Counted from the first letter of the stretch, positions 2,858-19,214 are shown. The stretch is DNA of 64,000 nt from an uncultured Alphaproteobacteria bacterium (GCA_902514875.1 CABXSY010000002.1:12083-76082); one strand, 5' to 3'. A program made the numbers and translations. The notes: a model not told the origin generated them from the letters alone.

Positions 2858-3991
2858 GTGAGAGAAATTTTTAAATATTCAAATTTAATTTTTTTATATG
2901 CTTTATCTCATAGTTATCTTGCAACTTGTTTTGCAATAGATCTTAAAATTCAAGGATACGAAGAACGCTATATTGGATTATCATTATCTTTGTGGGGAAT
3001 TGGTGTAATTTTTGGAGCAATATTACATAATTTAGTTAGAAAAAGATTAAATTTATTTTCTACAATTTTATATGGTTCAATAATTCAGTTAAGTTTTTCT
3101 ATAATTTTTTTAATTGATCAAAATACTTTTCTAGTAGCTATTATGCAATTTGTCATGGGAATAACAAGTGCAATTAATTCTTTAACTTTAGAAACATACA
3201 TAAGTTCAAAATTTAGAAAATCATCCGGATTTTATATTTCATTGTTTTGGTCATCAGCAGGTTTAGGCGCAATTACTGGTAGTCTTATTATTGCTATTAA
3301 TGGAATAAATAATTTTACATATTATATTGCCGTTATATTTTTCTTTTTACACTTTATTCCAATCTTTTTATTTAGATTTTCTATAAAACAAATTAGTGTT
3401 GAGAATGTCAGTATAAAATTATCCAAAGATGTTCTAAACAAAATTAAATATTTGCTTATGTGTGTTGTTTTATTTGGTGCATGTGATGCTGGTTTTAGCT
3501 CATTATTTCCATCATATTTATTAGAAGAATCATATAGTGATAAACAAGTTGGAAGAATAAATTTTTTAGCTGGATTAATTGCTTTAGTTTTTTATCCCTT
3601 TATGGGTAAGTTAGTAGATAATTATAATAAGACTGTTATTTTTAATACTTTTTGTTCTATTAATTTTATCAATTTATTTATTCTTTATTTTATCAGTGAT
3701 TTTTATGTCTATATAATTTGTGTAGCATTTTATTATTACACTATTGGAACAGTTTTCTTAATTACATTTAATATTGTAGGTAAAAAACTTGAAGGGGGAG
3801 TAATAGTCTTTGGAATAGCTGGTCACTATATCAGTGAAAATATTGGAAGTTTCCTTGGTCCAAATTTAATTGGTAATATCATTAATATAAATATTAATTA
3901 TTTCTTCTTAATATTTGTTTTTTTGTATTTCTTAATTGTTTTACTGTTCAATTTTAATCAAATTAAGAATGGTGGGCTCTCAGGGACTTGA
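2858..3991 (+). CDS. MFS-type transporter (about 12 hydrophobic helices), substrate unknown
   Basis: 377-aa ORF from GTG. I count about 12 hydrophobic segments by eye, with a central hydrophilic loop ([23 protein letters not shown]). The last 22 nt overlap the antisense tRNA at 3970-4046. Confidence 0.65.
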
Positions 3992-4046
3992 ACCCCGGAC
4001 CACCCCGTTATGAGCGGGGCGCTCTAACCAACTGAGCTAAGAGCCC
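3970..4046 (-). tRNA. tRNA with anticodon CAT (elongator Met, or Ile2 if lysidine-modified)
   Basis: rc = GGGCTCTTAGCTCAGTTGGTTAGAGCGCCCCGCTCATAACGGGGTGGTCCGGGGTTCAAGTCCCTGAGAGCCCACCA. The hand-folded cloverleaf has acceptor GGGCTCT/AGAGCCC, D arm GCTC/GAGC, anticodon stem CCCCG/CGGGG with loop CTCATAA, and T arm CGGGG/CCCTG with loop TTCAAGT. CCA is encoded. G1-C72 is paired and there is no G29-G31 run, so it is not an initiator. Confidence 0.92.
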
Positions 4047-4087: not shown

Positions 4088-4285
4088 TTATTTTTTAGAA
4101 TTTAGCATTTTTTTTACTGAATGATAAAATTCATCAGTAACAGTAAAATAAAAGCCATTTTCTTCATGTAAAGAATTATTACCACTTCCATTTATTGTAT
4201 GAAATTCTGTGAGATGTTTAAAAAAAATATTTATGTCTGGAATGGCATATTCTCTGCCATCATCACTTTTTATTATAAAAACCAC
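4088..4285 (-). CDS. Hypothetical small protein (65 codons if GTG 4285 is the start), last gene of the ABC operon
   Basis: A GTG lies 1 nt after the TAA of the upstream ATPase gene (mRNA ...GGT GAG TAA G GTG GTT TTT...). Translation is VVFIIKSDDGREYAIPDINIFFKHLTEFHTINGSGNNSLHEENGFYFTVTDEFYHSVKKMLNSKK. I recognise no family. The 97-aa form in the ORF track would overlap the ATPase gene by 95 nt. Confidence 0.35.
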   Translation of the reverse strand: MVFIIKSDDGREYAIPDINIFFKHLTEFHTINGSGNNSLHEENGFYFTVTDEFYHSVKKMLNSKK

Positions 4286-4286
4286 C

Positions 4287-5915
4287 TTACTCACCCACAA
4301 CCTCAAATGCTGACTGGACAAGTTGTTTAGTATATTCATTAATTGGATTATCAAGAACATCTTTTGTGATTCCTTCTTCAATCACTTTGCCATCTTTCAT
4401 CACTAAAGTGTAATGACATAAGGATCTAATTACTTTTAAATTATGACTAATAAATATGTAAGATAAATTGTGATTTCTTCTTAAGGATCTTAGTAAATCT
4501 ATTATTTGTGCTTGAATCGATAAATCTAGTGCTGATGTTGGTTCATCTAATAAAATAAATTCAGGATTTAAGATTATTGCTCTAGCTATAGCTATTCTTT
4601 GTCTTTGGCCTCCGGAAAATTCATGGGGAAATCTATGTAAGACACTTTCATCTAAATTAACTTCTTGAAGAGTTTTTATAATTAAGTTATCTTTTTCTTC
4701 ACTAGATAAATCTTTTCTATTAATTTCTAAACCTTCTCCTATAATTTGCTTAACAGTATGTCTTGGATTTAATGAGGAAAAAGGATCTTGAAATACTATT
4801 TGCATGTGTTCTCTAAGTTCTTTCATTTTTTGAGTATTATAATTTTGAATTTCTTGATCCTCAAAAATAATTTTACCGGAATTAATTTCCTGAAGTTTAA
4901 TTAATGACATTCCTAAAGTACTTTTTCCTGAACCACTCTCACCAACAATACCTATTGTTTCTCCATATCGAGCTTTTATATCAACGTTATTAACCGCAAT
5001 GAGCTCAGATTTTTTTTGATTAAAAAAATTTCCTTTTTTTAAAACAAATTTAACAGTACATTTTTGACCTTCTATTATATAATCTTTGTTTTCCTCATCA
5101 AATGGGTCGGGCTCACCACTTGGCTCAGAATTAATTAGATGTTTTGTATATTCATGTTTTGGATTAGAAAATACTTCTTCTGTATACCCTCTTTCTACTA
5201 TCTTACCATAACGCATTACACAAATGCGATCACTGGTTTTACGCACAACTGTTAAATCATGAGTAATAAGCATTATTGCCATGCCGTATTTTTTTTGAAG
5301 ATTTTTTAATAATTTTAAAATTTGAGATTGTATCGTTACATCTAAAGCTGTTGTTGGTTCATCTGCAATAAGTAAATCAGGTTTATTTGCAATCGCAATC
5401 GCAATCATGATTCTTTGTCTTTGACCTCCTGATAACTGGTGTGGATATTGATTTAATCTTTCTTCGGGTTGTGGAATCTGAACCTCATTTAATAACTCTA
5501 AAGCTCTTTTTTGAGCTTGAATTTTACTTATGTTACTATGTTCACGAAGAACTTCTATAATCTGACTTCCTATCTTATGTAAAGGATTTAAACTAGTTAA
5601 GGGTTCTTGAAAAATCATAGTTATGCTATCCCCTCTGATTTGTCTCATTTGTTCATCAGTAAATTTACCTGTCTCAACTCCTTTAAAAAAAATATTAGTT
5701 TTTGTACCAACTGTAGAATTTTTTGGTAACATCTTCATGATGGTTCTAGCAGTAACAGATTTACCAGAACCTGACTCACCAACTATTGCAAGTGTCTCAC
5801 CTTTCATAATATCAAATGAAATATCGTTTACGGCGTTAACCACACCTCCTTCAACACTGAATTTAATTTCAGCATTTTTTAGATCTAAAAGTTTTGTATT
5901 ATTTTGAGACTGCAT
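4287..5915 (-). CDS. ABC transporter ATP-binding protein, fused double NBD (DppD/DppF-type, YejF/GsiA-like)
   Basis: Two Walker A motifs (GESGSGKSVTAR, GESGSGKSTLGM), two signature motifs (LSGGQRQR, FSGGQRQR) and two Walker B motifs (LLIADEPTTALD, FILLDEPTSALD). Confidence 0.93.
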   Translation of the reverse strand: MQSQNNTKLLDLKNAEIKFSVEGGVVNAVNDISFDIMKGETLAIVGESGSGKSVTARTIMKMLPKNSTVGTKTNIFFKGVETGKFTDEQMRQIRGDSITMIFQEPLTSLNPLHKIGSQIIEVLREHSNISKIQAQKRALELLNEVQIPQPEERLNQYPHQLSGGQRQRIMIAIAIANKPDLLIADEPTTALDVTIQSQILKLLKNLQKKYGMAIMLITHDLTVVRKTSDRICVMRYGKIVERGYTEEVFSNPKHEYTKHLINSEPSGEPDPFDEENKDYIIEGQKCTVKFVLKKGNFFNQKKSELIAVNNVDIKARYGETIGIVGESGSGKSTLGMSLIKLQEINSGKIIFEDQEIQNYNTQKMKELREHMQIVFQDPFSSLNPRHTVKQIIGEGLEINRKDLSSEEKDNLIIKTLQEVNLDESVLHRFPHEFSGGQRQRIAIARAIILNPEFILLDEPTSALDLSIQAQIIDLLRSLRRNHNLSYIFISHNLKVIRSLCHYTLVMKDGKVIEEGITKDVLDNPINEYTKQLVQSAFEVVGE

Positions 5916-7023
5916 ATGGATCTACCGCATCTCTTATTCCATCGCCAAAAGCGTTAAACGCTAAAACTGTAAAAATAATCATACCTACTGGAGCCATCAT
6001 CCAAGGAGCATAGGCAAAACTTTGTATATCTAAAACCTGATTTAACATAACACCCCATGAAACCATGGGATGCTGAACACCTACACCTAAAAAACTTAAA
6101 AATGTTTCAACTAAAATAATTGAAGGGATGGTAAAGGAAGTCCATACGATTACATGAGATAATGTATTTGGAAAAATATGCTGAATCATTATTCTAGATC
6201 TTGAAGCACCTAGAGCTCTAGCAGCTCTTACAAACTCTAGATTTCTTACTAAAAAAGTTTTACCCCTAATCTCTCTTGCAATTGATGCCCAGTTTAATAA
6301 TACAATTATTGCAGCAAATAAAATAAACACAACTGTTTCATCTGCTCTTCTGGGTAAAAGTGCAACTAATGCAAAATATAATGGATAAGCTGGAAAAGAA
6401 AGAGCAAATTCTGTAACTCTTTGAGCAACTAAATCATAAGTTCCTCCAAAATAACCAGAACTTATGCCTACCATTAAACCAATAATTAATGATGCACCAA
6501 CTGCAATGAGAGCAAATAATAATGTTATTTGTGTTCCAACTAACATTCGTGATAACATATCTCTTCCCATATTATCAGTTCCTAAAAGATGTATATTTCC
6601 ATCATTGTTTCCAAATAATCTAAGATTAAAATTCATTCCAAAAATTGTATATTCATCACCTTGTATAAAAAATTTTATAGGAATCATTTCTTCAGACTCA
6701 GAAAAAGTAAACTCAAAAGTTTCCATGTCCATTTCTTCAATAGTTTTATAAACAAAAGGACGAAAATGAAAGTTACCATTGTTATCAAAAAAATGTATTA
6801 GTTGGGGAGGATGGTATAATTCATCTTGAACAACTTTTTTATAATTATGTGGTGATAAAAATTCTGCAAATACTGCTAAAAATAAAATAAATATAACTCC
6901 ATAAAAACCAAACATCCCATACCTATTTTTTTTAAGTCTTAAGTAAGATAGGTGCCAATGGGAGTTAACTTTTATATAATTATCAGTCTCTGCATTTAAT
7001 GTTTGAATGTTATTACTATCCAC
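5899..7023 (-). CDS. ABC transporter permease (DppC/OppC-like)
   Basis: 374-aa polytopic membrane ORF with the EAA loop region NLEFVRAARALGASRSRIMIQHIFPN. It overlaps both flanking genes. Confidence 0.9.
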   Translation of the reverse strand: MDSNNIQTLNAETDNYIKVNSHWHLSYLRLKKNRYGMFGFYGVIFILFLAVFAEFLSPHNYKKVVQDELYHPPQLIHFFDNNGNFHFRPFVYKTIEEMDMETFEFTFSESEEMIPIKFFIQGDEYTIFGMNFNLRLFGNNDGNIHLLGTDNMGRDMLSRMLVGTQITLLFALIAVGASLIIGLMVGISSGYFGGTYDLVAQRVTEFALSFPAYPLYFALVALLPRRADETVVFILFAAIIVLLNWASIAREIRGKTFLVRNLEFVRAARALGASRSRIMIQHIFPNTLSHVIVWTSFTIPSIILVETFLSFLGVGVQHPMVSWGVMLNQVLDIQSFAYAPWMMAPVGMIIFTVLAFNAFGDGIRDAVDPYAVSK

Positions 7024-8048
7024 TATGCTGCACCTCCCGCCATATCTCTAATTCTAGGATCTAAGAGTGCTAAAAAACAATCTGCAACAAAATTACCGAT
7101 TACCAATACGAGTGATAAAATCATGAAGATTGAGGAGGCAACATATATATCCATTGAAGATACAGAACTGAGCACTAATGGACCAACTGTTGGTATTGCT
7201 AAAACAATAGCAACTTCTATTTCACCTTCTATAAGATAGGATACACTTCTACCTTGGTTCATAATGATTGGATGTAATGCATTTGGAACACCATGCTTCC
7301 AAACTATTTTACTTTCCTTTAATCCTTTTGCTCTAGCTGTTTCAATAAATTGCATTTTTAAAACATCTAATAAATTTCCCCTCATCATCCTCATTTGATA
7401 TCCAGCCCCAACAAAACTTCCAACTGCAATAATAGGCCAAGTATGTAGGAAAAAATCCCAAGTTTTAGCTAAACTCCACCAACCTTCTTGCAGTACGTAT
7501 TCCTGAGAAAATAATGATCCGTAATAAGGAGAATGAAACTTAATTGCCCAAAAATATAAAATAAAAATTGCTATTATAAATTTAGGAATGGAGAAAGCTA
7601 AGAATGTTAAGACCGTGGCAATCTGATCTCCAATTTGATATTGATGAGTAGCGGCATAAACACCAGCAAGAATGCCAATCGTTACAGCATTAAAATAACA
7701 AATAAATGCCAGCAGTAATGTCCGCGGAATCCTATCTCCAACTACATCATTTACTGGTCTTTTTTGAACAAAAGAATCTCCTAAATCCCAATATAAAGTT
7801 ACATCTTTTACCCAAGTTAAATATTGTATGTATACAGGCTTATCTAAACCTAGTTTTTTTCTTAAATCTTGAGCTTGAATTTCTGCTTCATCTTCACTTA
7901 TTCCGCCAAGCATCATTGTCTGTCTTTTCCATTGATCTGCGTAATCTCCGGGCATTGCTTGAACAAGAATGAAGGCAACAAGAGTAATTGCTATTAACAA
8001 AGGAATAGTTGCTATTAGCCTTTTTAAAAAGAAAATTAGAAAACCCAT
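7023..8048 (-). CDS. ABC transporter permease (DppB/OppB-like)
   Basis: 341-aa membrane ORF with EAA loop QFIETARAKGLKESKIVWKHGVPNAL and C-terminal LLDPRIR, typical of DppB/OppB. Confidence 0.9.
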   Translation of the reverse strand: MGFLIFFLKRLIATIPLLIAITLVAFILVQAMPGDYADQWKRQTMMLGGISEDEAEIQAQDLRKKLGLDKPVYIQYLTWVKDVTLYWDLGDSFVQKRPVNDVVGDRIPRTLLLAFICYFNAVTIGILAGVYAATHQYQIGDQIATVLTFLAFSIPKFIIAIFILYFWAIKFHSPYYGSLFSQEYVLQEGWWSLAKTWDFFLHTWPIIAVGSFVGAGYQMRMMRGNLLDVLKMQFIETARAKGLKESKIVWKHGVPNALHPIIMNQGRSVSYLIEGEIEVAIVLAIPTVGPLVLSSVSSMDIYVASSIFMILSLVLVIGNFVADCFLALLDPRIRDMAGGAA

Positions 8049-8068
8049 ATTTGAAAATTAAGTTAATT

Positions 8069-8092
8069 CTATGGCCCATTTTTGGGCCATAG
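8069..8092 (-). promoter_or_regulatory. Intercistronic stem-loop between the binding-protein and permease genes
   Basis: CTATGGCCCA-TTTT-TGGGCCATAG is a perfect 10-bp inverted repeat (6 G:C pairs) with a 4-nt loop. It lies 14 nt after the binding-protein stop and 21 nt before the permease start. On the mRNA strand no immediate U-tract follows, so it looks like an attenuator or 3'-end stabiliser rather than a full terminator. Confidence 0.6.
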
Positions 8093-8105
8093 AAAATATA
8101 TATTA

Positions 8106-10130
8106 TTAATACTCTGCTAATACACCAGGTAAGAACTCATCAAGCTGATCAGCTTTTGGAGTGTAAAGTCTAGACCTCATAACTCCATCTTCTGCCCACT
8201 CATACATATACACAGGTGCACCAGGATGATTATTTTTTATCCTTTTATTGATTAAAAGTGCAGCTGGAGCTTGAATTAAGCCCACAGTATATACATTTTC
8301 AGTTCTAACTCTCTGGATATCTCTAGCAAGACTTGCAACTTCTGAAAGATCATTAGTTGATAATATGCCTTGAGCCTTATCAACCAGTGTTTCTTCAAAT
8401 GCTAGAAGATCGCCTTCATTATCTCTATGCCAAGCAGGATTTTGAGATGTTGTTGGCAATCTATCGCCAATATTCTTAGTCGCAACAACCCAGTGCTCTC
8501 TTGCAATATACATGCTCCAATTTCCACTATCAGTGAATGCATCAGTATTATCAGAAGGTTTTAAAACTGGTTTAATACCAATTGCTTCAAACATACTCAC
8601 AGAAGCATCAGCTAATTTATTATCCGTAGATCTTAAGCTATTATAAAGAACATCAATAACAAGGTCATCTCCTCCATTAGGGAGATTTCTTATACCATTG
8701 CCGTCTGAGTCTTCTAAACCAAGACCATCCAAAATTGAATTAGCTCCAGATACATTATATGCATAGTAAATTGAGTCATCAAAATTATGAAAAGGAGAAC
8801 CAGCTACAAAACCACCAGCATGTGGATGAAAAAAAGGTCCTCTAGCAACTGATTGACCCATAGTGTCTCTATCCATTGCATGTGACATTGCTTTTCTAAA
8901 TTCCACATTTCTAAATAATTTTCTAAGCTCTCTTTCATAATCGCTACTTACACCAAATTCTGAAGATAGATTCAGCATTAAGTCCCAAGCAATCAACCTA
9001 GTACCAAATACTGATTTAACTGGAGAATTCGGATCTTTGTTTTGTTTTAACGCTTCAACATAGTTTCCTGGATTTTCCATATTAGAAAAATCTCCAGTAC
9101 CAGCCAAGGCCTGAGTAGTTCTATCATCCCAAGATGTTAACTTGTAAATAGTTTCATTATAGTATGGAAGCTGATTACATTCTTCATCTACTTTCCAGTA
9201 ATACGGGTTACGCTTCATAACCATTAATTCATCTACTTTATGAACTACTGGAACAAAAGCTCCCATTGTAACAATAGGTAAAACACTTGCTGGCATTCCA
9301 TTTGCGTATGACTCGTAAGTTGCGTCACTATTATGCGCAGGATGCAATGGTTTCATTACATGAGATGGTCCAGGAGCACCTCCCATATATGCTAACTGTG
9401 CTAATACAGCATTACCTTTTGGTTCATCAAAATTAAATTTAAATGAATATGGTCCTAGTATTTCGAGAGTTGTTCCTGATCCTAATGCATCTTTAGGTAA
9501 TCTAGAATTTACATTAGCATCTTGAACATTATCGTTCCACCAAAAATCTATGTCTTCAGTGTCGAACATATCTCCATCAGACCATCTAGCTCCCTCTAAA
9601 AGATACATCGTTAGTGATTTTCTATCAGAACTAAATTCCCAATCTTTTGCCAAGTTTGGAAGTGGATTAGCTTCTTCTGCTTTAACTTGCCATAGAGGTC
9701 CAAGTCTAGTCAATGATTCCATTAGTTGAATATTAATTCCACCCCATCCTTGACTTTGTCCTGCTAACCAGTTGAATCCTTCTGGTCTTCCACCAATAAC
9801 ATGTCGGAATGTACCACCATACTCACCAATACCATCAACCATTTGATCTTTTTTTGCCATCCAGGGCTCTTTAGGCATTCTTTCGTTTACAGGTGGTAAC
9901 TTTCCAGCATCAACATAAGATTTAGTTAGAGGAGATTCATTATAACTATCACAACTTTGATAAGTCCATAAATCATCTCTTCCCACAAGTTCAATATCCA
10001 TACCGGACATACTCTTGTCTTTAGGCAAAGTTTCTAAACCACTTGCAGTTGAAGTCATAGCAAAAATACTAACTCCAACAAGTAAGCTTGCTGCCTTGCT
10101 TTTAAATTTGAATTTATTTTCAATACCCAT
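8106..10130 (-). CDS. ABC transporter periplasmic substrate-binding protein, family 5 (peptide/opine/oligosaccharide type), unusually long (674 aa)
   Basis: Signal peptide KAASLLVGVSIFAMTSTASG. The body resembles family 5 (…LAKDWEFSSDRKSLTMYLLEGARWSDGDMFDTEDIDFWWND…, …MKRNPYYWKVD…). The strong SD is GGGAGGAAAG (rc of 10131-10140). Confidence 0.85.
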   Translation of the reverse strand: MGIENKFKFKSKAASLLVGVSIFAMTSTASGLETLPKDKSMSGMDIELVGRDDLWTYQSCDSYNESPLTKSYVDAGKLPPVNERMPKEPWMAKKDQMVDGIGEYGGTFRHVIGGRPEGFNWLAGQSQGWGGINIQLMESLTRLGPLWQVKAEEANPLPNLAKDWEFSSDRKSLTMYLLEGARWSDGDMFDTEDIDFWWNDNVQDANVNSRLPKDALGSGTTLEILGPYSFKFNFDEPKGNAVLAQLAYMGGAPGPSHVMKPLHPAHNSDATYESYANGMPASVLPIVTMGAFVPVVHKVDELMVMKRNPYYWKVDEECNQLPYYNETIYKLTSWDDRTTQALAGTGDFSNMENPGNYVEALKQNKDPNSPVKSVFGTRLIAWDLMLNLSSEFGVSSDYERELRKLFRNVEFRKAMSHAMDRDTMGQSVARGPFFHPHAGGFVAGSPFHNFDDSIYYAYNVSGANSILDGLGLEDSDGNGIRNLPNGGDDLVIDVLYNSLRSTDNKLADASVSMFEAIGIKPVLKPSDNTDAFTDSGNWSMYIAREHWVVATKNIGDRLPTTSQNPAWHRDNEGDLLAFEETLVDKAQGILSTNDLSEVASLARDIQRVRTENVYTVGLIQAPAALLINKRIKNNHPGAPVYMYEWAEDGVMRSRLYTPKADQLDEFLPGVLAEY

Positions 10131-10218
10131 CTTTCCTCCCTTAGAAAAAATATTTAGTTAAATAAAATATTTTTTTTCTACAAAATCAATATCAAAAGTA
10201 AATTATTTTTTAATAATT

Positions 10219-11748
10219 TTATGAATTTGTAGAAATATTGATAAATTGATTATGAGTAAGAGATTCCTTGATAATTTGATTAAATTTTTGAGAAAAATCA
10301 TTGTAATATTGTCTGGAACTAGACCTTAAATCATACTTTTGCATTTGTTGTCTTGCTGATTCCTTATTTAGTAGCCCAAGACCGTCTACAACTGGGTAAT
10401 AAAGCTGTGATTGTACATGAGGTAGACCAGATAAGTAATCGTCAAAGTGGTCCAAACTTGGAAGTTCATCTTGCCAAAGTGATATAAGTTTTTTTGTTTC
10501 TTCACTAATACATTCATCAGCAACATATTCCCAAAATTGTGAATCTCTTCTCTTAGAAACATAATGCATATTTAAGAAAGTTTTAAAATCATCAAACTGT
10601 CGACCAATACGATTATTAAAATCTGATATTTTATTATCATCATTGAAATCCATTTCTTTTTTTAAATATTCAGAAGCAAATAAGATTAATTGAACCAAAG
10701 TACTATGAATGGAAGTGGCCTCCAATGGTTCAAGAAAACCTGATGATAAACCGATTGCCAAACAATTTTTTACCCAATACTTTTCAAGTCGACCACTATT
10801 AAATTTTATATCTCTTCGTGGTTCAATTTTATGTCCAAGAACTTTTTCTATTTCTTCTTGTGCTTGATCAGGTGAAATAAATTGATCACTATATACATAA
10901 CCCGCACCTATTCTTTCTTGAGTTGGTATTTGCCACATCCATCCAGATTTTTGTGCCCAAGCTAAAGTATAATTAATATAATTTTCTTCATTAATATCTA
11001 GAAAGAATGGCATTGCTCTATTAACAGGTAAATTGTCTTGATAAGATTTCCATTTTGTTTTGTACTGATCTCCAATAATTAATTTCCTAAATCCACTACA
11101 ATCAACAACGAGATCAACATCTAATTCTAAACCACTTTCAAAATATAAAGATTCTATTGTTCCATCATCTCTTACATTACAAGATGTATAAACATCGTCA
11201 ATTATTTCTATATTCTGAGATCTTTTTTTTAAATAACTAGCAACTAGTGAATTATCAAAATGATACGCATAATAAAATGGACTAATAAGTTCTAAATTAT
11301 TATCTTTGTAAACATAGGGAACTTTTTTATTTTGCATAAGTAACGTATGTAGGTGAATTTCTGAAACAGGTCTCCCAGCGGCAACGGCATAAGCTTTTAA
11401 GTATTCAAAACTTTCTGGCTTACTTTTTGGTGCTATTAATTGAGGGTCATCAATTGGTCCATAATAAGTATACCCCAATTCTTTCCAGTCTTTATGAACG
11501 ATGCCAAACTTTAAAGTAGCTTTAGTTTCTTTTAAAAAATCTGTCTCATCTAAATTATATTTTTTTAAAAACTCATAAAAAATACTTGTTGTTCCTTCTC
11601 CAACACCAATTGTTGGAATTTTTGATGATTCAATTACTTTTACATTTGCATTCAATTTATTAGAGTAAAAAAAATCACTCATAATATAAGCAGCTAACCA
11701 GCCAGCAGTTCCACCGCCTAAAATAACAACATTTTTAATTTCTTTCAT
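10219..11748 (-). CDS. Flavin-dependent halogenase family protein (tryptophan-halogenase-like)
   Basis: 509 aa. It has the FAD fingerprint VVILGGGTAGWLAA, GVGEGT, a Lys in ATLKFGI (aligning by eye with the catalytic Lys of PrnA/RebH), the halogenase signature WxWxIP as GWMWQIP, and GLSSGFLEPLEATSI containing the conserved Glu. The start lies 3 nt after the GH4 stop. Confidence 0.85.
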   Translation of the reverse strand: MKEIKNVVILGGGTAGWLAAYIMSDFFYSNKLNANVKVIESSKIPTIGVGEGTTSIFYEFLKKYNLDETDFLKETKATLKFGIVHKDWKELGYTYYGPIDDPQLIAPKSKPESFEYLKAYAVAAGRPVSEIHLHTLLMQNKKVPYVYKDNNLELISPFYYAYHFDNSLVASYLKKRSQNIEIIDDVYTSCNVRDDGTIESLYFESGLELDVDLVVDCSGFRKLIIGDQYKTKWKSYQDNLPVNRAMPFFLDINEENYINYTLAWAQKSGWMWQIPTQERIGAGYVYSDQFISPDQAQEEIEKVLGHKIEPRRDIKFNSGRLEKYWVKNCLAIGLSSGFLEPLEATSIHSTLVQLILFASEYLKKEMDFNDDNKISDFNNRIGRQFDDFKTFLNMHYVSKRRDSQFWEYVADECISEETKKLISLWQDELPSLDHFDDYLSGLPHVQSQLYYPVVDGLGLLNKESARQQMQKYDLRSSSRQYYNDFSQKFNQIIKESLTHNQFINISTNS

Positions 11749-11751
11749 AAA

Positions 11752-13236
11752 TTATTTATCAAATTCAAAAGCTTGTGCTTCTACAAGCAGAGATGATTCT
11801 TTGTCATTTTTTAATTCTTCAGGTGATCTTATTTTCATTCGAGCAGCGCCTTTAAAATTTTTCTTTTTAACAGTTGATTTTTTTATTCTTTCTAATGCTT
11901 GATCCATTTCATTTTGATATTGTGGTAACCACTTAGATTGAGCTACTAACATTTCATCTACCATTGCCCAAACTTCATCAGGTGAACAAACAGCACTTAC
12001 TAGTGGATCTTGTAGAACAGCTAATTTTAAAAGATTAATATCTCCATCAATTGCGGCTTTGACAGCCATTCTTTGCACATCAATTGAAGTTCGGCATAAA
12101 GAGGCACAAGCCATTGGTAATTCTATACCCTTAATCATTTTAATACCTTCCTTATCAACCATTCCAGTACTTTCAATTACACAATCATCTGGTAAATTTT
12201 TTATAGTACCATTGTTTACAACATTAAAATGACCTCTATAAGGTCTGTTAGTTTCTATAGCTTCAATTATATAACTTCCATGCTCAGTTGATCTTTTGTG
12301 AGTTGATAAATCAATTCCAGATTCATTTAAAAATTTTGAAAAATCTTCAACAAACCAATTTCTTTTTTCTGAAGTAACTCTTAAATATCCACCTGTTTCA
12401 CCATGTATCCAATTTGATAGATCAATCCAATTTGGTATTTCTTCTACCCTCTTTCTATACCATGGAAGATATTCACTTAAATGACCATTACTTTCAGTCG
12501 AGAATAAGCCAAATCTCTTTAGAATATCAATTCTAACTTTTTCTTGTTTTGATATTTCAGGATGATTTTCTAAAGCTTCGACAAGTACATCTTTTGAGAC
12601 GTTTTTGCCTTTAAATTTTAAATCGATGTACCACGTCATATGATTAATTCCACTGCACATATATTCAAGATCAGTACCGTTATCAGAACCTAAAGCCTTA
12701 GAAATTAATTTGGCACCACCTTGAACGCCGTGGCACAAACCAACCGTATTTACTTTTGCTTCAGATATAGCTGCCCATGTGTTCATTGCCATAGGATTAG
12801 AATAATTTAAAAATAACGCATCTTTATGAGAATACGATTTTATATCTTCACAAAAATTTAAAGTTTGAGGAATATTTCTTTGTCCATATAAAATTCCTCC
12901 AGCACAAATCGTATCTCCTACACATTGATCAACTCCGTATTGAAGGGGGATATTAATATCATGTTCAAATGCTTCTAACCCACCTATTCTAGTACAATTA
13001 ATAATATATTTTGCCCCATCTAAAGATTTTTTTCTATCAGTTGATTGTTCTATGTTTGCTGGGAGCTTATTTTGATCAATATCTTTTTGAATTAAACGAG
13101 AAATTAATTCTAAATTTTTTTCTGAAATATCGTGAAATGAAAAAGTGATATCTTGAAATTCAGGAACTTTTAGCAAGTCTCTTACTAAGGTTTGTGTAAA
13201 CCCTATACTCCCTGCACCAATAAAACTAATTTTCAT
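11752..13236 (-). CDS. Glycoside hydrolase family 4 (NAD+/Mn2+-dependent glycosidase), paralogue 1
   Basis: 494 aa. It has the N-terminal Rossmann MKISFIGAGSIGF, YSNPMAMNT, the metal/catalytic motifs VGLCHGVQG and GINHMTW, and a basic C-terminal extension not present in paralogue 2. Confidence 0.88.
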   Translation of the reverse strand: MKISFIGAGSIGFTQTLVRDLLKVPEFQDITFSFHDISEKNLELISRLIQKDIDQNKLPANIEQSTDRKKSLDGAKYIINCTRIGGLEAFEHDINIPLQYGVDQCVGDTICAGGILYGQRNIPQTLNFCEDIKSYSHKDALFLNYSNPMAMNTWAAISEAKVNTVGLCHGVQGGAKLISKALGSDNGTDLEYMCSGINHMTWYIDLKFKGKNVSKDVLVEALENHPEISKQEKVRIDILKRFGLFSTESNGHLSEYLPWYRKRVEEIPNWIDLSNWIHGETGGYLRVTSEKRNWFVEDFSKFLNESGIDLSTHKRSTEHGSYIIEAIETNRPYRGHFNVVNNGTIKNLPDDCVIESTGMVDKEGIKMIKGIELPMACASLCRTSIDVQRMAVKAAIDGDINLLKLAVLQDPLVSAVCSPDEVWAMVDEMLVAQSKWLPQYQNEMDQALERIKKSTVKKKNFKGAARMKIRSPEELKNDKESSLLVEAQAFEFDK

Positions 13237-13238
13237 AT

Positions 13239-13287
13239 TTTTATTTTTATACTGAGTAAATTAATTGACAATATTTTATTTTTATAC
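13239..13287. repeat. 14-nt direct repeat TTTTATTTTTATAC (13239-13252 and 13274-13287) in the 73-bp divergent control region
   Basis: The two copies are identical when read directly from the sequence, with a start-to-start distance of 35 bp. A TTGACA hexamer (13265-13270) lies between them. The sequence is T-rich, so chance occurrence in this genome cannot be excluded. Confidence 0.45.
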
Positions 13288-13309
13288 ATCATTAAAAAAA
13301 CTATAAAAG

Positions 13310-14050
13310 ATGACAGATTTACAGAATTTTATAAAAAATGGATTTGTTCTAAAGAAAAGTCTTTTTTCTAAAGAGGAAATTGATAAGTTAATTCAATACA
13401 TCACTATTCGACAAGACAAACAGCAAATTGCTAGAGAAACTACAACTTCAACTGGTAAATTAACAATGACCATGTGGAATCATCCTTCAGAAGATTTATT
13501 TGGAAAATTCTCTACTAATGAAAGAATAGTTAAACCAATGGAAATATTCTTAAATGATGAGGTTTATCATTATCATTCTAAAATTATTTGGAAAAATCCT
13601 GGTGATGGTGGATTTGATTGGCATCAAGATTATGGTTATTGGTATCACAATGCCTGTCTTTATCCAGATATGGCATCATGTTTTATAATGTTAGATAAAG
13701 CAAATAAAGAAAATGGCTGTCTCAAAGTATTAAAAGGTTCTCATCGTGTTGGAAGAATTAGCCATGCACGATCAGATACACCCGAACAGACAGCAGATAA
13801 TGAAAGAATAAGAGAACTAGAAAAAAGACATAAGTCTGTTTATATTGAAGCAGAACCAGGAGATGCACTATTTTTTCATGCAAATCTATTGCACTCTTCC
13901 GATGCGAATAAATCACAAAATTCTAGAAGAACATTAATAGTGTGCTTTAATACTAAATCCAATAATCCTTATAAAGAAATTGGACATGCCTCTTACAACC
14001 AGTTAAAAGTGGCAAAACATAATTCAATAATGGAGTATAAAATTGACTAA
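13310..14050 (+). CDS. PhyH-family Fe(II)/2-oxoglutarate dioxygenase (canonical HxD...H)
   Basis: 246 aa with NGFVLKKSLFSKEEI, HxD in FDWHQDYGYW, CFIMLDKANKENGCLKVLKGSHR, and the distal His in FFHANLLHSSDAN. Confidence 0.88.
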   Translation: MTDLQNFIKNGFVLKKSLFSKEEIDKLIQYITIRQDKQQIARETTTSTGKLTMTMWNHPSEDLFGKFSTNERIVKPMEIFLNDEVYHYHSKIIWKNPGDGGFDWHQDYGYWYHNACLYPDMASCFIMLDKANKENGCLKVLKGSHRVGRISHARSDTPEQTADNERIRELEKRHKSVYIEAEPGDALFFHANLLHSSDANKSQNSRRTLIVCFNTKSNNPYKEIGHASYNQLKVAKHNSIMEYKID

Positions 14051-15404
14051 ACTTACAATCATTGGTGCTGGTAGCGCAGTATTTACAAAAAATATTTTTA
14101 CCGATTTAATGTTTATAGATGATTTTAAAAAAATGGACATTGCACTTGTAGATATTGATGAAAAAAGATTAAAAATTTCACATGAATTATTAGATGTAAT
14201 AGCAAAAAAATTAAATGCTTCTCCAAATATAAAATCTTATACTAATAGAAAAGAGGCGTTGGCAGATTCTGATTTTGTACAATCAACTATCCAAGTGGGA
14301 GGATACAAACCATCAACAGTAATAGATTTTGATATTCCAAATCAATTTGGGTTAAAACAGACAATTGCCGATACCCTAGGCATTGGAGGAATTATGAGAG
14401 GCCTAAGAACAATTCCCGTTTTAGTTGATATTGGTAAAGATATAATGGATCTTTGTCCAAATTCATTATGGTTGCAATATGTAAACCCAATGTGTTCAAA
14501 TATGATAGCAATAAATAATGCTTGTCCTGGAATTAATTCTATAGGACTATGTCATTCAGTGCAAGGAACTGCCGAAATGCTTGCTAGAGATTTAAATGAA
14601 AAAATTGAAGATATTGATTATCTATGTGCTGGGATTAATCATATGGCTTTTTATAAAAAGTTTACAAAAAAAAATGGCAATGGTGGAGAGGATCTTTATC
14701 CAAGATTGAAAAAATTAGCTGATGATATTGTTAGAGATAAAATAACATCTACTAGGAGTATAGGTAAGGATAGTGAGTCAGATAAAGTTCTACATGAAAA
14801 AGTAAGATATGAAATTTTAAGACGATTTGGTTATTTTGTTACAGAGTCCAGTGAACATTTTGCTGAGTATGTTCCATGGTTTATTAAACAAAACAGACAA
14901 GATTTAATTGATCAATATAAAATTCCAATTGAAGAGTATATTGATAGGTGTGAAAATAACATCAAGTTATGGGATGATTTAGAAAAAGATATGACACCTA
15001 TTCATAATGAACCTCTAAAAAGAGGAAAGGAATATGCATCATTCATTATGGATGCTGTAACAAATAATAATGAAGTAACGATTAACGGCAATGTAATGAA
15101 TGATGGATATATAGATAATTTACCATCAAATTGTTGTGTTGAAGTTCCCTGTTTAATAAATTCAAATGGTAATCAACCTCAAAAGACCGGTCGCTTACCT
15201 GAACATTTAGCAGCTTTAATGAGAACAAATATAAATGTTCAAATATTGACTGCAGAAGCGGCATTAACAAATAAAAAAGAACATATTTATCATGCTGCAA
15301 TGCTGGATCCACTTACTGGAGCAAATTTATCTATTGATGAAATATATTCTATGGTTGATAAATTAATTGATGCTCACGGTAATTACTTACCCAAATATCA
15401 TTAA
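14043..15404 (+). CDS. Glycoside hydrolase family 4 (NAD+/Mn2+-dependent glycosidase), paralogue 2
   Basis: 453 aa from TTG. It has KLTIIGAGSAVFT, YVNPMCSNM, IGLCHSVQG and GINHMAF. It overlaps the upstream PhyH gene by 8 nt. Confidence 0.88.
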   Translation: MTKLTIIGAGSAVFTKNIFTDLMFIDDFKKMDIALVDIDEKRLKISHELLDVIAKKLNASPNIKSYTNRKEALADSDFVQSTIQVGGYKPSTVIDFDIPNQFGLKQTIADTLGIGGIMRGLRTIPVLVDIGKDIMDLCPNSLWLQYVNPMCSNMIAINNACPGINSIGLCHSVQGTAEMLARDLNEKIEDIDYLCAGINHMAFYKKFTKKNGNGGEDLYPRLKKLADDIVRDKITSTRSIGKDSESDKVLHEKVRYEILRRFGYFVTESSEHFAEYVPWFIKQNRQDLIDQYKIPIEEYIDRCENNIKLWDDLEKDMTPIHNEPLKRGKEYASFIMDAVTNNNEVTINGNVMNDGYIDNLPSNCCVEVPCLINSNGNQPQKTGRLPEHLAALMRTNINVQILTAEAALTNKKEHIYHAAMLDPLTGANLSIDEIYSMVDKLIDAHGNYLPKYH

Positions 15405-16231
15405 TGTCTAAACTTACAGTTAAAGATTTATTTGACAAAAAAGGAAAAGTTAAATTAACAGAACTATATGTGACAAATGCTTTAGAAGCATATGCAGCTG
15501 AACAGGCTGGGATAGATATTCAAATTGTTTCATTCAAAAAAGATACTCTGAGAACTGGCGTACCAACAAACAAATGGTTTCGAGACGCTCATATTAAAGA
15601 TATTCGTGATGCAGCAGCAAACACTTTTATGATTTATGGCCTTGGTCAACTATCTTCACCAGAAAAAGCAATTGATGCTGCACTTATTGCAAGGGAAAAT
15701 GGTGCTGATGCAGTTTATTGCGGTAATAGTCCAAAATATATAGAAGCTCTACGAAATGAAGGTTTGCCAGCAGTCAGTCATATTGGTTTAATTCCATATA
15801 AAAGTACATGGACAGGCGGGTTCAAAGCAGTTGGGAAAGATGCACAATCTGCTTATAGGGTTTATCAAGATGCTTTAGCATATGACCAGGCGGGGGCTAT
15901 TGGTCTAGAGGTAGAATGTGTTCCTGATAGAGTTGCAGAAATAATTACAAATAAAGTTAATTCATTAACGTTATCCATGGGGAGTGGCCCTAAATGTGAT
16001 GTTGAGTTTTTATTTATACAAGATGTTATCGGAACAAATACTGATAGAGTACCTCGTCATGCTAAAGTTTTTAAGGATACAAATAAATCTTATGAAAAGC
16101 TTGTTGATGATACTGTGGAAGGACTTAAAAATTTTATTAAAGACGTAAATACTAAGAAATTTCCAAGTCCATCAAATATTGTCGAAATAAAAGATGAAGA
16201 GTTCGAAAAATTTTTAAATAAAGTTGGTTAG
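15404..16231 (+). CDS. PanB-like protein (ketopantoate hydroxymethyltransferase fold, ICL/PEP-mutase superfamily), probably not a true PanB
   Basis: 275 aa. The C-terminal half aligns by eye with E. coli PanB: SHIGLIPYK~GHLGLTPQS, LEVECVP~LVLECVP, LSMGSGP~IGIGAGN, PRHAKVF~PKFAKNF. The N-terminal metal-ligand positions differ (see findings). The start overlaps the GH4 stop (TAATG). Confidence 0.65.
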   Translation: MSKLTVKDLFDKKGKVKLTELYVTNALEAYAAEQAGIDIQIVSFKKDTLRTGVPTNKWFRDAHIKDIRDAAANTFMIYGLGQLSSPEKAIDAALIARENGADAVYCGNSPKYIEALRNEGLPAVSHIGLIPYKSTWTGGFKAVGKDAQSAYRVYQDALAYDQAGAIGLEVECVPDRVAEIITNKVNSLTLSMGSGPKCDVEFLFIQDVIGTNTDRVPRHAKVFKDTNKSYEKLVDDTVEGLKNFIKDVNTKKFPSPSNIVEIKDEEFEKFLNKVG

Positions 16232-17055
16232 ATATTTATAATTAATAAATCTTCTCCAATTATAGGATATTTACCAAAATCTCTTTTTACAATTTTCTTT
16301 AATCTTGAAGCATTAAATCTTGTTGGAACAAAGTGTGTTAATACAAGTTCTTTACAATTTGATAATTTAGCAACTTTACCAACAAGATTACTTGGAGTGT
16401 GATACTCTTTAACATTATGTAATGTTTTTTTAGTTCTAAGTTTAGACGTTTTATTCATTTCATATTCTATAAAAACCTCATGAAGTAAAACATCTGAGTT
16501 TTGAGCATTTTGCATTAAACTCTCACACGGGCGTGTATCTCCACTAATTGTTAATTTTTTATTATTATTATAAAATGAAAAACCATATGCATATGGCACT
16601 GGCTTATGATCAACTTCAAAATATTTAATTTTCATATCATTTATTTTTATTGATCCATTTTTTTTAAATTCATAAACTTTATATTTAAGAGCATTTATTG
16701 ATTTTCTTTTTTCATAAAAAATTCTTAATTCACGTTCAATTTTCCACGCTGAAAATATTTTATCAACAAATTTCTTTGTTCCTTTTGGTCCATATATTTT
16801 CCATATTGTATCTCTTTCAGAGTGCCAAGAAGAAATGATGAGTTGATACAAATCTATAACATGATCGGTGTGTAAATGAGTAAGTAGTAAAGCGTCAATA
16901 TCAGCTGAAGAGTTTTTACTTTGATTTAATCTTTGCGTTACTCCAGAACCACAATCAATTAAAATTTTAGTTTTTTTTGTAGATACAAGATTTGATGAGC
17001 CACACCTTTTGTAATCAACTGAGGGGCATCCTGTTCCTAGAAGCGTTAGCTTCAT
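16228..17055 (-). CDS. MBL-fold metallo-hydrolase (RNase Z/BN-like)
   Basis: 275 aa with [19 protein letters not shown] and the HxHxDH motif as LTHLHTDHVIDL. Its start overlaps the rpoD stop by 1 nt. Confidence 0.8.
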   Translation of the reverse strand: MKLTLLGTGCPSVDYKRCGSSNLVSTKKTKILIDCGSGVTQRLNQSKNSSADIDALLLTHLHTDHVIDLYQLIISSWHSERDTIWKIYGPKGTKKFVDKIFSAWKIERELRIFYEKRKSINALKYKVYEFKKNGSIKINDMKIKYFEVDHKPVPYAYGFSFYNNNKKLTISGDTRPCESLMQNAQNSDVLLHEVFIEYEMNKTSKLRTKKTLHNVKEYHTPSNLVGKVAKLSNCKELVLTHFVPTRFNASRLKKIVKRDFGKYPIIGEDLLIINI

Positions 17056-19214
17056 TATTCATCTAAAAATGTTTTTAATTTCCTTGCTCTAGTTGGATGT
17101 TTTAATTTTCTTAATGCCTTAGCTTCAATTTGTCTTATTCTTTCTCTAGTAACACTAAATTGCTGACCAACTTCTTCAAGGGTATGATCACTATTCATAC
17201 CAATACCAAATCTCATTCTTAAAACTCTTTCTTCTCTTGGGGTTAAAGAAGATAATATTCTTGTTGTCGTATCTCGTAATGAACTTTTTACGGCGGCATC
17301 TATAGGTATTAGAGCATTTTTATCTTCAATAAAATCTCCCAAAGAGCTATCTTCTTCATCACCGACTGGGGTTTCTAAACTTATTGGTTCTTTAGCAATT
17401 TTTAAAACTTTTTTTACTTTATCTAATGGCATATGTAATCTTTCAGCTAATTCATTAGGTGTTGGTTCTCTTCCAATCTCTGACATTATTTGTCTTGTAG
17501 TTCTAACTATTTTATTAATAGTTTCTATCATATGAACTGGTATTCTAATTGTTCTTGCTTGATCGGCAATAGATCTTGTAATTGCTTGTCTAATCCACCA
17601 TGTGGCATATGTTGAGAATTTGTAACCTCTTCGATATTCAAATTTATCTACGGCTTTCATCAAGCCTATATTACCTTCTTGGATTAAATCTAAAAACTGA
17701 AGTCCTCTATTTGTATATTTTTTTGCTATCGAAATAACTAATCTTAAATTGGATTCTATCATTTCTTTTTTTGCTCTGTTTGCGGATCTTTCACCTTGTT
17801 GAACAGTGCCAACTATTCTTCTAAATTCAGATAAAGGTAGCTCAGAGGCAGATTGAATTTCTCGGATTTCTTCAATATTTTTATTAATTTCAATATGATT
17901 TCTGTTAATAAACTTCTCCCAATTTTTATCTTTTGTAGACAAAAGACTTTGTATCCAATTTTTTTCAAAGTTAAAATTTAAATATTGAGATACAAAATCC
18001 TCTCTTTTTACTCCAGCACTGGTTGCCATACGTAGCATTTTACCTTCGCGCAAAAGGAGTTTTTTATTTAATTCATATAATGCCTCCATAAGAGCTTCAA
18101 TTGTTGTAGAATTAAAATGCACAGCTTTCATAGCAGCAACCATTTCTTTTTGAATTTTTAAATACTTTTTTTCTAAGGTATTGTAGTTTTTTTCATTTTT
18201 TTTATCAGCATTTATTAACTCTTGGCTATGTTTTTGAAGCTTTTTAAATAACTTAGTTATATCATTAAAATCGTTTAGAACTTTAGGCTTAAGATTTTCT
18301 TCCATTGCTGCTAGAGAGACGTTTAAACTATCATCTTCGTCTTCCTGTTGCTGATCGCCGTCGCTATTAGCTTCATTATTATCTTCATCTTGATTTTTTT
18401 TCTTATCGTTATCTTTATTGTTATCCGCTCCATTCTCAATCAGCTTAAATGTATCATCAAGTTTTGAATCAGAAATATCTGACATGTCATATGTGGCTTC
18501 TAAATCCACTATGTCTCTTAACAACATTGTCCCATCTTTTATTGCATCTTTCCAATTTATTATTGATCTAATTGTCATTGGGCTTTCACAAATAGCTCCA
18601 ATCATCTTTTCTCTTCCAGCTTCTATTCTTTTGGCAATTGCAATCTCACCTTCACGGCTAAGAAGCTCTACTGCCCCCATATCTCTTAAATATAATCTTA
18701 CAGGATCATCAGTTTTTCCTGATTGTTTTTTTTCTTGATCTTCAGATCCTTCCTCAGATTTATTTGCTTGTTCCTTAGCTAATAAAATTAATTCTTGAGC
18801 TTCTTCTTCTGTGTATATTTTAATATTATTAGATTTAATAAAATTTTCAAATTTTTCTATATTTTCTTCAAGTCTTAGTTTTTTTGGAATTGCTTTCTCG
18901 ATTATTTTTTTTGTGTATATCCCGTCAACTTTGTGTTTATTTATTAATTTTGCAAAAATTTCTTTAATCTTATCTTCAAAACCCGAAATTGCTTTAGGTA
19001 TTTTTATATGTTTTTGTTCTTTTAAAGTGTTAAATTCAGATTTTTTAGAAACTTTTTTTTCAACTGTTTTTTTTGTTTTCTTAACAATTTTATGTTTAGA
19101 ATTTTTATTGGGTTTTGGTTTAGTACTTTTCTTTTTTAGATTCTTCTTAGGAGATAGTTTTTTTTTAGATAATTTTGTCTTTTTCTTAACTACTTTTTTT
19201 GTCTTTTTTGCCAT
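17055..19214 (-). CDS. rpoD: RNA polymerase sigma factor RpoD (sigma-70) with a lysine-rich N-terminal extension
   Basis: Region 2 is [27 protein letters not shown] and region 4.2 is [27 protein letters not shown]. It has the acidic non-conserved region. 29 of the first 60 residues are Lys. Confidence 0.95.

Follow-up and report, generated by a model that had tools for sequence, protein, structure and literature searches.

The DNA window analyzed here comprises 64,000 nt from an uncultured member of the Alphaproteobacteria (GCA_902514875.1 CABXSY010000002.1:12083-76082), and the locus of interest within it is a SAR11 gene set of approximately 12 kb (4088-16231). The locus encodes a family-5 ATP-binding cassette (ABC) importer consisting of a solute-binding protein (SBP), two permeases and a fused double ATPase, together with two family-4 glycoside hydrolases (GH4a and GH4b), a flavin-dependent-halogenase homolog (Hal), a PhyH-family dioxygenase, and a PanB-like protein (Table 1). 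The genes form two arrays that diverge from a short spacer. In the leftward array, GH4a and Hal are separated by a 3-nt gap and Hal and the SBP gene by an 88-nt gap, and further on, the two permease genes overlap by 1 nt and the second of them overlaps the ATPase gene by 17 nt. In the rightward array, the PhyH and GH4b genes overlap by 8 nt, and the GH4b and PanB-like genes by 1 nt. Genes in this streamlined host genome, the GC content of which is roughly 30%, generally overlap or are packed tightly. A preliminary description of the locus had listed the open reading frames (ORFs), overlaps, gaps and a stem-loop, every one of which was reproduced in a new ORF map and in the sequence. Its family assignments all proved right in Pfam and NCBIfam scans, as did its statement that the locus contains no regulator, sugar kinase or isomerase gene. 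As the gene arrangement recurs in dozens of genomes, it lies far beyond chance.

Table 1. Features of the locus and its surroundings; positions are those of the 64,000-nt window.
Feature	Position	Strand	Evidence or remark
Fused double ATPase of an Opp/Dpp-type ABC importer, AgpD-like	4287-5915	-	Two ABC_tran domains and oligo_HPY; YejF-like, 646 bits
OppC-type permease	5899-7023	-	OppC_N and BPD_transp_1
OppB-type permease	7023-8048	-	BPD_transp_1_N and BPD_transp_1
Perfect 12-bp stem-loop between SBP and permease genes	8067-8094	-	Sequence and terminator-like scan
Family-5 SBP, periplasmic, AgpA/MelB lineage, 674 aa	8106-10130	-	SBP_bac_5
Hal, flavin-dependent-halogenase homolog, cytoplasmic	10219-11748	-	Trp_halogenase (PF04820), 355 bits
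GH4a glycosidase	11752-13236	-	Glyco_hydro_4 and 4C; PRK15076
Divergent spacer, 73 bp	13237-13309		Sequence
PhyH-family Fe(II)/2-oxoglutarate dioxygenase, hydroxylase type	13310-14050	+	PhyH, 112 bits
GH4b glycosidase	14043-15404	+	Both Pfam GH4 domains; PRK15076
PanB-like TIM-barrel protein	15404-16231	+	Pantoate_transf, 134 bits
Small ORF, 65 codons, GTG start	4088-4285	-	ORF list; coding status uncertain
tRNA-Met(CAT)	3970-4046	-	ARAGORN and Rfam; left-edge landmark of the variable segment
PhyH2, second PhyH-family gene, outside the coordinates of the preliminary description	875-1702	-	PhyH, 60 bits

Regarding the transporter, the best PDB relative of the SBP is the "periplasmic alpha-galactoside-binding protein" MelB of Agrobacterium (6EPY; E 7e-167, 560 bits, residues 44-661), whereas the second-best match reaches only E 1e-44, more than 120 orders of magnitude behind. 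The SBP has a signal-like N-terminus and is 42% identical to MelB over 630 aa, with 42-44% identity to MelB and AgpA. When plasmids were searched by tblastn, a full-length homolog was found on 248 rhizobial replicons. The annotated Ensifer locus presents the gene order AraC, GH4, SBP5, permease, permease, fused ATPase and GH4, and the same holds for pSymB of S. meliloti. Between the window and the Ensifer and S. meliloti loci, the encoded proteins share 59-61% identity for GH4a, 43-44% for the SBP, 45% for OppB, 44-45% for OppC, 53-55% for the ATPase, and 47-48% for GH4b, and the internal order of the ABC block is identical in the window and in the rhizobial mel/agp loci. GH4a corresponds to the gene that occupies the melA position upstream of agpA in rhizobia, and GH4b corresponds to the GH4 gene downstream of the ABC genes in the Ensifer and S. 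meliloti loci (L004/L005). In S. meliloti, melA and the genes downstream of it are needed for raffinose and melibiose assimilation, with AgpT as an AraC-type activator (PMC4254191), and MelB and its ABC transporter import raffinose-family oligosaccharides (PMC10100860). The preliminary description had stated that no characterized pathway combines these genes, which has to be corrected: six of the ten genes (those for GH4a, the SBP, the two permeases, the ATPase and GH4b) have their equivalents in the Sinorhizobium/Ensifer melA-agpABCD-GH4 locus for alpha-galactosides. Because of this match and of MelB being the closest solved SBP, these six genes belong to a set already assigned to a characterized pathway, and the earlier interpretation of the locus is supported in part.

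Both glycosidases pass the NCBIfam model for alpha-galactosidase PRK15076 (552 bits for GH4a and 593 bits for GH4b, with a cut-off of 486), and both fall far below the AglA alpha-glucosidase model. The motifs GAGS, GLCH and GINHM are found at positions 7, 166 and 196 of GH4a and at positions 8, 168 and 197 of GH4b, respectively. We take GAGS to be the NAD-binding GxGS motif, and GLCH and GINHM to carry the Cys and His of the Mn2+ site of GH4 enzymes. GH4a and GH4b share 33% identity. The two proteins resemble the E. coli MelA type of GH4 enzyme in passing the PRK15076 cut-off and in these motifs, and they differ from it in forming a set of two paralogs. E. coli MelA pairs with the MelB permease, whereas the GH4 enzymes of the window pair with an ABC importer.

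Taken as a whole, the locus is best explained, with moderate confidence, as a SAR11 form of the alphaproteobacterial mel/agp system, which scavenges alpha-galactosides, with accessory O2-dependent enzymes added. In this explanation, the secreted family-5 SBP, encoded between a strong ribosome-binding site and the stem-loop, would capture an alpha-galactoside in the periplasm, and the OppBC-type permeases and the fused double ATPase would import the sugar. GH4a, as the MelA counterpart, and GH4b, as the counterpart of the second rhizobial GH4 enzyme, would then cleave it in the cytoplasm by NAD+/Mn2+-dependent redox elimination. Our best guess is that the targets of Hal, PhyH and the PanB-like protein are either a decoration on the imported galactoside or its aglycone, and PhyH and the PanB-like protein may form a pair of an oxygenase and a product-handling enzyme. 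The substrate would probably be an alpha-galactoside and possibly a decorated one. The explanation is based on homology, synteny, intact motifs and co-conservation, from which we infer the substrate class and a control of expression by the stem-loop and the spacer. The core of the system was already known; the linkage of Hal to GH4/ABC loci, the addition of PhyH and PanB-like genes in SAR11 only, and the variable slot that holds the locus are new.

In common with the S. meliloti melA-agpABCD/agpT and A. fabrum mel systems, the SAR11 locus has an SBP of about 680 aa, two permeases, a fused ATPase, and two GH4 enzymes. In contrast to them, it lacks an AraC regulator, has its second GH4 gene in the divergent array and not behind the ATPase gene, has the halogenase-like gene inserted between the GH4a and SBP genes, and contains additional PhyH and PanB-like genes, along with an SBP that is only 42% identical to MelB. 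The hosts differ as well, as the rhizobial systems are found in plant-associated bacteria and the SAR11 host is a streamlined marine oligotroph.

Several observations weigh against the assignment to alpha-galactosides. The best solved relative of GH4b is the alpha-galacturonidase LplD, and no MelA structure is found among the PDB sequence matches of GH4a or GH4b. No galactose-catabolic genes were seen in the annotated parts of the window; between 26.4 and 39.3 kb, ten ORFs were annotated in search of such genes, and all matches were housekeeping genes. Identity to MelB is only 42% for the SAR11 SBPs, and the A-type and B-type proteins (from the two SAR11 configurations described below) share only 43% with one another, so that their ligands could be other than melibiose, raffinose or galactinol. 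The specificity of GH4 enzymes is uncertain when predicted from sequence, and the assignment made here relies on subfamily models and not on structure. Furthermore, the extra O2-dependent enzymes, which are missing from the characterized rhizobial loci, argue against a plain alpha-galactoside as the substrate.

Among these extra enzymes, Hal contains the motifs GGGTAGW (position 11) and GWMWQIP (position 269) as well as K80 and E343, all of which are invariant in 22 homologs. They correspond to the catalytic Lys and Glu and to the FAD and WxWxIP motifs of PrnA and RebH. Hal is a flavin-dependent-halogenase homolog with all catalytic motifs intact. Among solved structures, its relatives are tryptophan/indole halogenases such as BrvH (6FRL) and Xcc4156 (6Y1W). 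These two enzymes reportedly do not halogenate tryptophan, and no native substrate of BrvH is known. The intact catalytic residues of Hal might suggest that the locus is a biosynthetic or export cluster for a halogenated glycoside, and the frequent use of family-5 SBPs for peptides, nickel and opines might suggest an opine or peptide importer, the corresponding NCBIfam models giving weak matches. However, glycosyltransferase, nonribosomal peptide synthetase/polyketide synthase and exporter domains are absent from the ORFs of the locus in the Pfam and NCBIfam scans, the transporter belongs to the importers that depend on a binding protein, an alpha-galactoside binder is the closest solved SBP by the E-value margin given above, and homologous loci carry AraC regulators in the manner of the catabolic agpT system. 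Both of these explanations are extremely improbable.

The genomic context of Hal was investigated in 80 loci, with one genome per species, and in five further loci, all of which were searched with all window proteins. When the Hal homolog is at least 40% identical, a GH4 gene adjoins it in 26 of 28 loci, and most of these loci also have family-5 ABC genes; the two loci without an adjoining GH4 gene are contigs of 2.3 and 4.8 kb. When the identity is 36% or less, none of 55 loci has GH4 or family-5 ABC neighbors. The clade of GH4-linked Hal includes SAR11 single-cell genomes, Devosia, Kaistia, Bauldia, Aestuariivirga, Tabrizicola, Histidinibacterium, Marivivens, Rhodobacter, Cypionkella, and other Paracoccaceae. 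Hal is thus a fixed partner of GH4/ABC loci across one alphaproteobacterial clade. The Hal-containing loci of Devosia, Kaistia, Bauldia, Aestuariivirga, Tabrizicola, Histidinibacterium and Rhodobacter encode Hal of the same subfamily (42-50% identity), usually in the order SBP-permease-permease-ATPase-GH4b-Hal-GH4a. Unlike the SAR11 locus, about 22 Hal loci outside SAR11 include 10 with an AraC regulator, and PhyH genes of the 13310-14050 type and PanB-like genes are absent from the non-SAR11 loci. The SBP is 62-73% identical to MelB in the Hal loci of Devosia, Kaistia and most Rhodobacterales, but not in those of Marivivens (L016) and two Paracoccaceae (L017 and L025). Relatives with 51-53% identity to the A-type SBP of the window are found in Marivivens and Paracoccaceae. 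Clustering of ORFs of at least 100 aa revealed no flavin-reductase family that recurs in the related loci.

The distant Hal relatives (36% identity or less), which occur in Gamma- and Betaproteobacteria, Caulobacterales and Sphingomonadales, belong to the same Pfam family with the same catalytic motifs and are likewise found in carbohydrate-import loci. BrvH and Xcc4156 are solved members of this group. They differ in being accompanied by a TonB-dependent receptor instead of an ABC importer, in often occurring as tandem paralogs with SapC, and in never standing beside GH4 or family-5 ABC genes. The recurrent neighbors in these loci (L032-L085) are the TonB-dependent receptor, found in 29 of 54, and Cupin_8, DUF6445, SapC, LacI, GH3 and GH13 proteins. 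Cupin_8 and DUF6445 proteins are assumed here to have the cupin fold of 2-oxoglutarate (2OG) oxygenases. With this assumption, Hal and its cupin-fold partners in the distant loci parallel the pairing of Hal and PhyH in the window, and the pairing of a halogenase-like protein with an oxygenase-fold protein would be a recurrent theme of proteobacterial glycan import. We know of no function assigned to the widespread module of TonB-dependent receptor and distant Hal. Among the papers searched, none joins a halogenase homolog to an alpha-galactosidase operon, and nothing relevant was found on GH4, halogenase or alpha-galactosidase in SAR11/Pelagibacter or on halogenases with TonB. Exact-sequence look-ups of the window Hal and of a 100%-identical PanB-like protein (P0121) gave no match.

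Other neighbors of Hal were seen in a few additional contigs. An uncultured lineage (L086/L087) has GH2 and GH32 genes in the vicinity of Hal, and in L086 the 5′ end of Hal overlaps a PhyH gene of a third type. In the soil contigs L088 and L089, genes for glycerol kinase and glycerol-3-phosphate dehydrogenase are found close upstream of Hal. These neighbors may be hints toward raffinose-type or galactosylglycerol substrates.

PhyH contains the triad H105-Q-D107 and H195, which is invariant in the alignment of the family (A7), and H105 and D107 match identical residues in 7DT0. R206/R207 is a candidate 2OG-binding Arg, assigned by position alone. The best PDB relatives of PhyH are small-molecule hydroxylases, namely 7DT0/7DZZ, GriE and EctD. 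Among the loci examined, this PhyH was seen only in SAR11 configurations A and B.

PhyH2, encoded to the left of the locus, is a different member of the PhyH family. Homologs with 58% identity are found inside the Hal/GH4b loci of two Paracoccaceae (L017 and L025), and a paralog with 66% identity adjoins Hal in L007, so that PhyH2 is possibly associated with the galactoside system. The PhyH2 family has an invariant H123-S-G125 sequence where the HxD iron motif is expected. HxG in place of HxD is the pattern of Fe/2OG halogenases. An hhalign comparison of the PhyH and PhyH2 families gave no clear alignment in the stretch with the metal motif of PhyH2. The best PDB relative of PhyH2 is an "oxidase/hydroxylase" (4XC9/4XCB), which is probably the sugar-modifying HygX.

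The PanB-like protein passes the Pfam model Pantoate_transf over its full length (134 bits, cut-off 28.7) and remains below the cut-offs of the PanB models TIGR00222 (106 vs 207.6) and PRK00311 (117 vs 272). Its AlphaFold2 model has a pLDDT of 91, and the closest fold is PanB with a TM score of about 0.7, the identity to PanB (PDB 1M3U, 1OY0 and 1O66) being 20-25%. Of the PanB residues, the GDS motif (D45/S46) is replaced by VSFKKD, D84 by G79, K112 by Y105, and E114 by G107, and H126 and E171 are retained (H136 and E181 in PanB). D45/S46, D84, K112 and E114 (E. coli numbering) are the Mg2+- and substrate-binding residues of PanB in the 1M3U structure. The same residues are lost in 22 other members of the subfamily, whereas three canonical PanBs in that alignment keep them. 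The PanB-like protein is thus predicted from its residues to be unable to bind the metal of PanB. The possibility that its gene is the true panB of the genome or a core flanking gene was considered and ruled out, as the catalytic residues are lost and the gene is missing from configuration C.

The relatives of the PanB-like protein are found in sugar and oxygenase contexts and not in pantothenate contexts. In 80 metagenome loci (L092-L171), none of the PanB-like genes has a GH4, Hal or SBP5 gene beside it, and this subfamily adjoins GH4 only in SAR11. The neighbors in these 80 loci are a membrane di-iron oxygenase of the FA_desaturase family (25 loci), a Rieske ferredoxin (24 loci) and a ferredoxin reductase (22 loci), and LacI regulators and ABC genes of the sugar type occur there as well. 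In two metagenome loci, a PhyH gene is located directly upstream of the PanB-like gene, and in one of them, L141, ThuA is also upstream. The constant of PanB-like neighborhoods is an oxygenase partner in a sugar context, which fits with the PhyH and PanB-like genes that bracket GH4b in the window. The PanB-like gene with the FA_desaturase-type oxygenase, Rieske ferredoxin and ferredoxin reductase genes forms a recurrent cassette, mostly in soil metagenomes, and appears to be an uncharacterized catabolic module.

The locus is located in a slot between the conserved greA-carBA-yqeY-dnaG-rpoD-MBL block on one side (16228-19214 in the window) and tRNA-Met/FBA on the other (3970-4046). The preliminary description had proposed to test whether the genes are co-conserved in related genomes and whether the region acts as a variable island, and both proved to be the case. 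Three configurations of the slot were found among SAR11 lineages. Configuration A is the arrangement of the window, also found in L003, L006 and L029; L003, which derives from a close relative, is a long-read assembly with many frameshifts and served for synteny alone. In configuration B (L001, L007, L090 and L091), Hal follows the ATPase gene, and the SBP is 43% identical to that of configuration A, compared with 63-92% identity for the GH4a, GH4b, PhyH and PanB-like orthologs. This split between the SBPs suggests a transporter replacement or a divergent ligand specificity. In configuration C (L172 and L174), the sole GH4 gene is GH4b (75-76% identical), followed by tRNA-Met and a family-1 sugar ABC transporter, with LacI nearby and with GFO/IDH/MocA and aldo-keto reductase genes; the PhyH, PanB-like, GH4a, Hal and family-5 ABC genes are all absent from these two loci. 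GH4b and tRNA-Met are constant over the three configurations, and the remaining genes vary together. As only three lineages are concerned, this is weak support for a functional connection of the variable genes. The slot is a swap site for SAR11 sugar-uptake genes.

These comparisons bear on whether the accessory genes belong to the pathway at all. Hal, PhyH and the PanB-like protein might be unrelated passengers of a compact genome, with a pathway that consists of the ABC transporter and GH4 enzymes only. Gene overlap and tight packing are general in this genome, the PanB-like protein is 89-95% conserved between SAR11 lineages, as compared with 64% for Hal and 63-65% for GH4a, and its subfamily is found elsewhere without GH4. 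However, the linkage of Hal to GH4 spans three alphaproteobacterial orders and persists in GC-rich genomes that are not streamlined, and the PhyH and PanB-like genes are missing exactly where the family-5 ABC, GH4a and Hal genes are missing, namely in configuration C. The passenger explanation is thus improbable.

In another explanation, which follows the preliminary description, a decorated or otherwise unknown glycoside is imported, its catabolism requires oxidative tailoring by PhyH, the flavoprotein and the PanB-like protein before or after cleavage by GH4, and the likeness to mel/agp would reflect a shared scaffold only. The SAR11 SBPs are as distant from MelB as they are from each other, Hal shares an operon with GH4 and ABC genes in each configuration that carries it, and three PhyH subtypes recur in Hal loci (the SAR11 PhyH, the PhyH2-like type of L017, L025 and L007, and the L086 type). 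In addition, PhyH and PanB-like genes flank GH4b only where the family-5 ABC, GH4a and Hal genes are present, and PanB-like relatives always adjoin an oxygenase gene in sugar-ABC loci. On the other hand, Hal is found in many loci with a true MelB ortholog (62-73%) and without PhyH or PanB-like genes, so that Hal does not need PhyH or the PanB-like protein. The characterized rhizobial loci function without any of the three accessory proteins, no candidate for the decorated substrate has emerged, and the linkage of PanB-like genes to GH4 is confined to SAR11. We regard this explanation as a serious but somewhat unlikely alternative to alpha-galactoside scavenging of the mel/agp type.

A more specific proposal is that the accessory enzymes form an integral and undescribed step in glycoside catabolism, either a halide-dependent oxidation or a module of an oxygenase and a one-carbon/retro-aldol enzyme. 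In the halide version, Hal, possibly with the HxG-type PhyH2, may act on the imported galactoside or its aglycone. In the one-carbon version, PhyH and the metal-less PanB-like protein may together free a marine galactoside of a methyl or hydroxymethyl group that decorates it. Such a step is quite unlikely on present evidence.

Regarding the control of expression, Pfam and NCBIfam detected no DNA-binding helix-turn-helix domain among the ORFs of the locus and of its flanks, whereas AraC genes are present in the relatives from Ensifer, Devosia and others. The divergent spacer contains the core TAAATTAATTGACAATATT (13257-13275), which includes the back-to-back hexamers TTGACA/TTGTCA and the palindrome ATTGnCAAT. 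This core is invariant between SAR11 configurations A and B, where the flanking proteins are only 50-65% identical, and it might function as a shared -35 region or as the operator of a regulator whose gene lies elsewhere. Promoter-like hexamers are found on both strands of the spacer, but the promoter scan gave 58 sites overall vs 71.8 in shuffled controls and thus carries no weight alone. Just upstream of its start codon, the SBP gene has a strong Shine-Dalgarno sequence, AAGGGAGGAAAG. We infer that the stem-loop between the SBP and permease genes may serve as an intra-operon attenuator or an mRNA stabilizer that would raise the output of the SBP over that of the permeases. An Rfam scan of positions 1-22000 revealed no riboswitch or other cis-acting RNA, the tRNA being the sole match.

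SAR11 bacteria are usually pictured as users of small non-sugar molecules with few glycosidases. A conserved and abundant island for alpha-galactoside uptake suggests that some members of the clade draw carbon from galactosides. Candidate substrates are galactosylglycerols such as floridoside and raffinose-type algal sugars. The swapping of transporters in the slot between lineages suggests niche differentiation. "Tryptophan halogenase" homologs have long been annotated in proteobacterial sugar-uptake loci, to our knowledge without a known role, and halide-dependent chemistry in the present pathway, if true, would also explain these genes. The Hal clade described here is tied to a simple ABC/GH4 system, and because it occurs in cultured strains of Devosia, Tabrizicola, Rhodobacter and Marivivens, the question of its role is genetically testable. 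Likewise, the PanB-like subfamily represents a coherent, uncharacterized enzyme family tied to oxygenase genes.

At the left end of the locus, the small ORF is part of a 97-codon ORF with a TTG start (4088-4381) that runs into the ATPase gene. It has no match in Pfam or NCBIfam and is missing from configuration B. The frame is open in L003, L006 and L029, with 65% amino acid and 81% nucleotide identity, compared with 84-89% amino acid identity for its neighbors. As it is less conserved in close relatives than the neighboring genes, the small ORF is not established as a gene. Beyond it, the last 22 nt of an ORF for an MFS transporter (2858-3991, + strand) lie within the oppositely oriented tRNA-Met gene.

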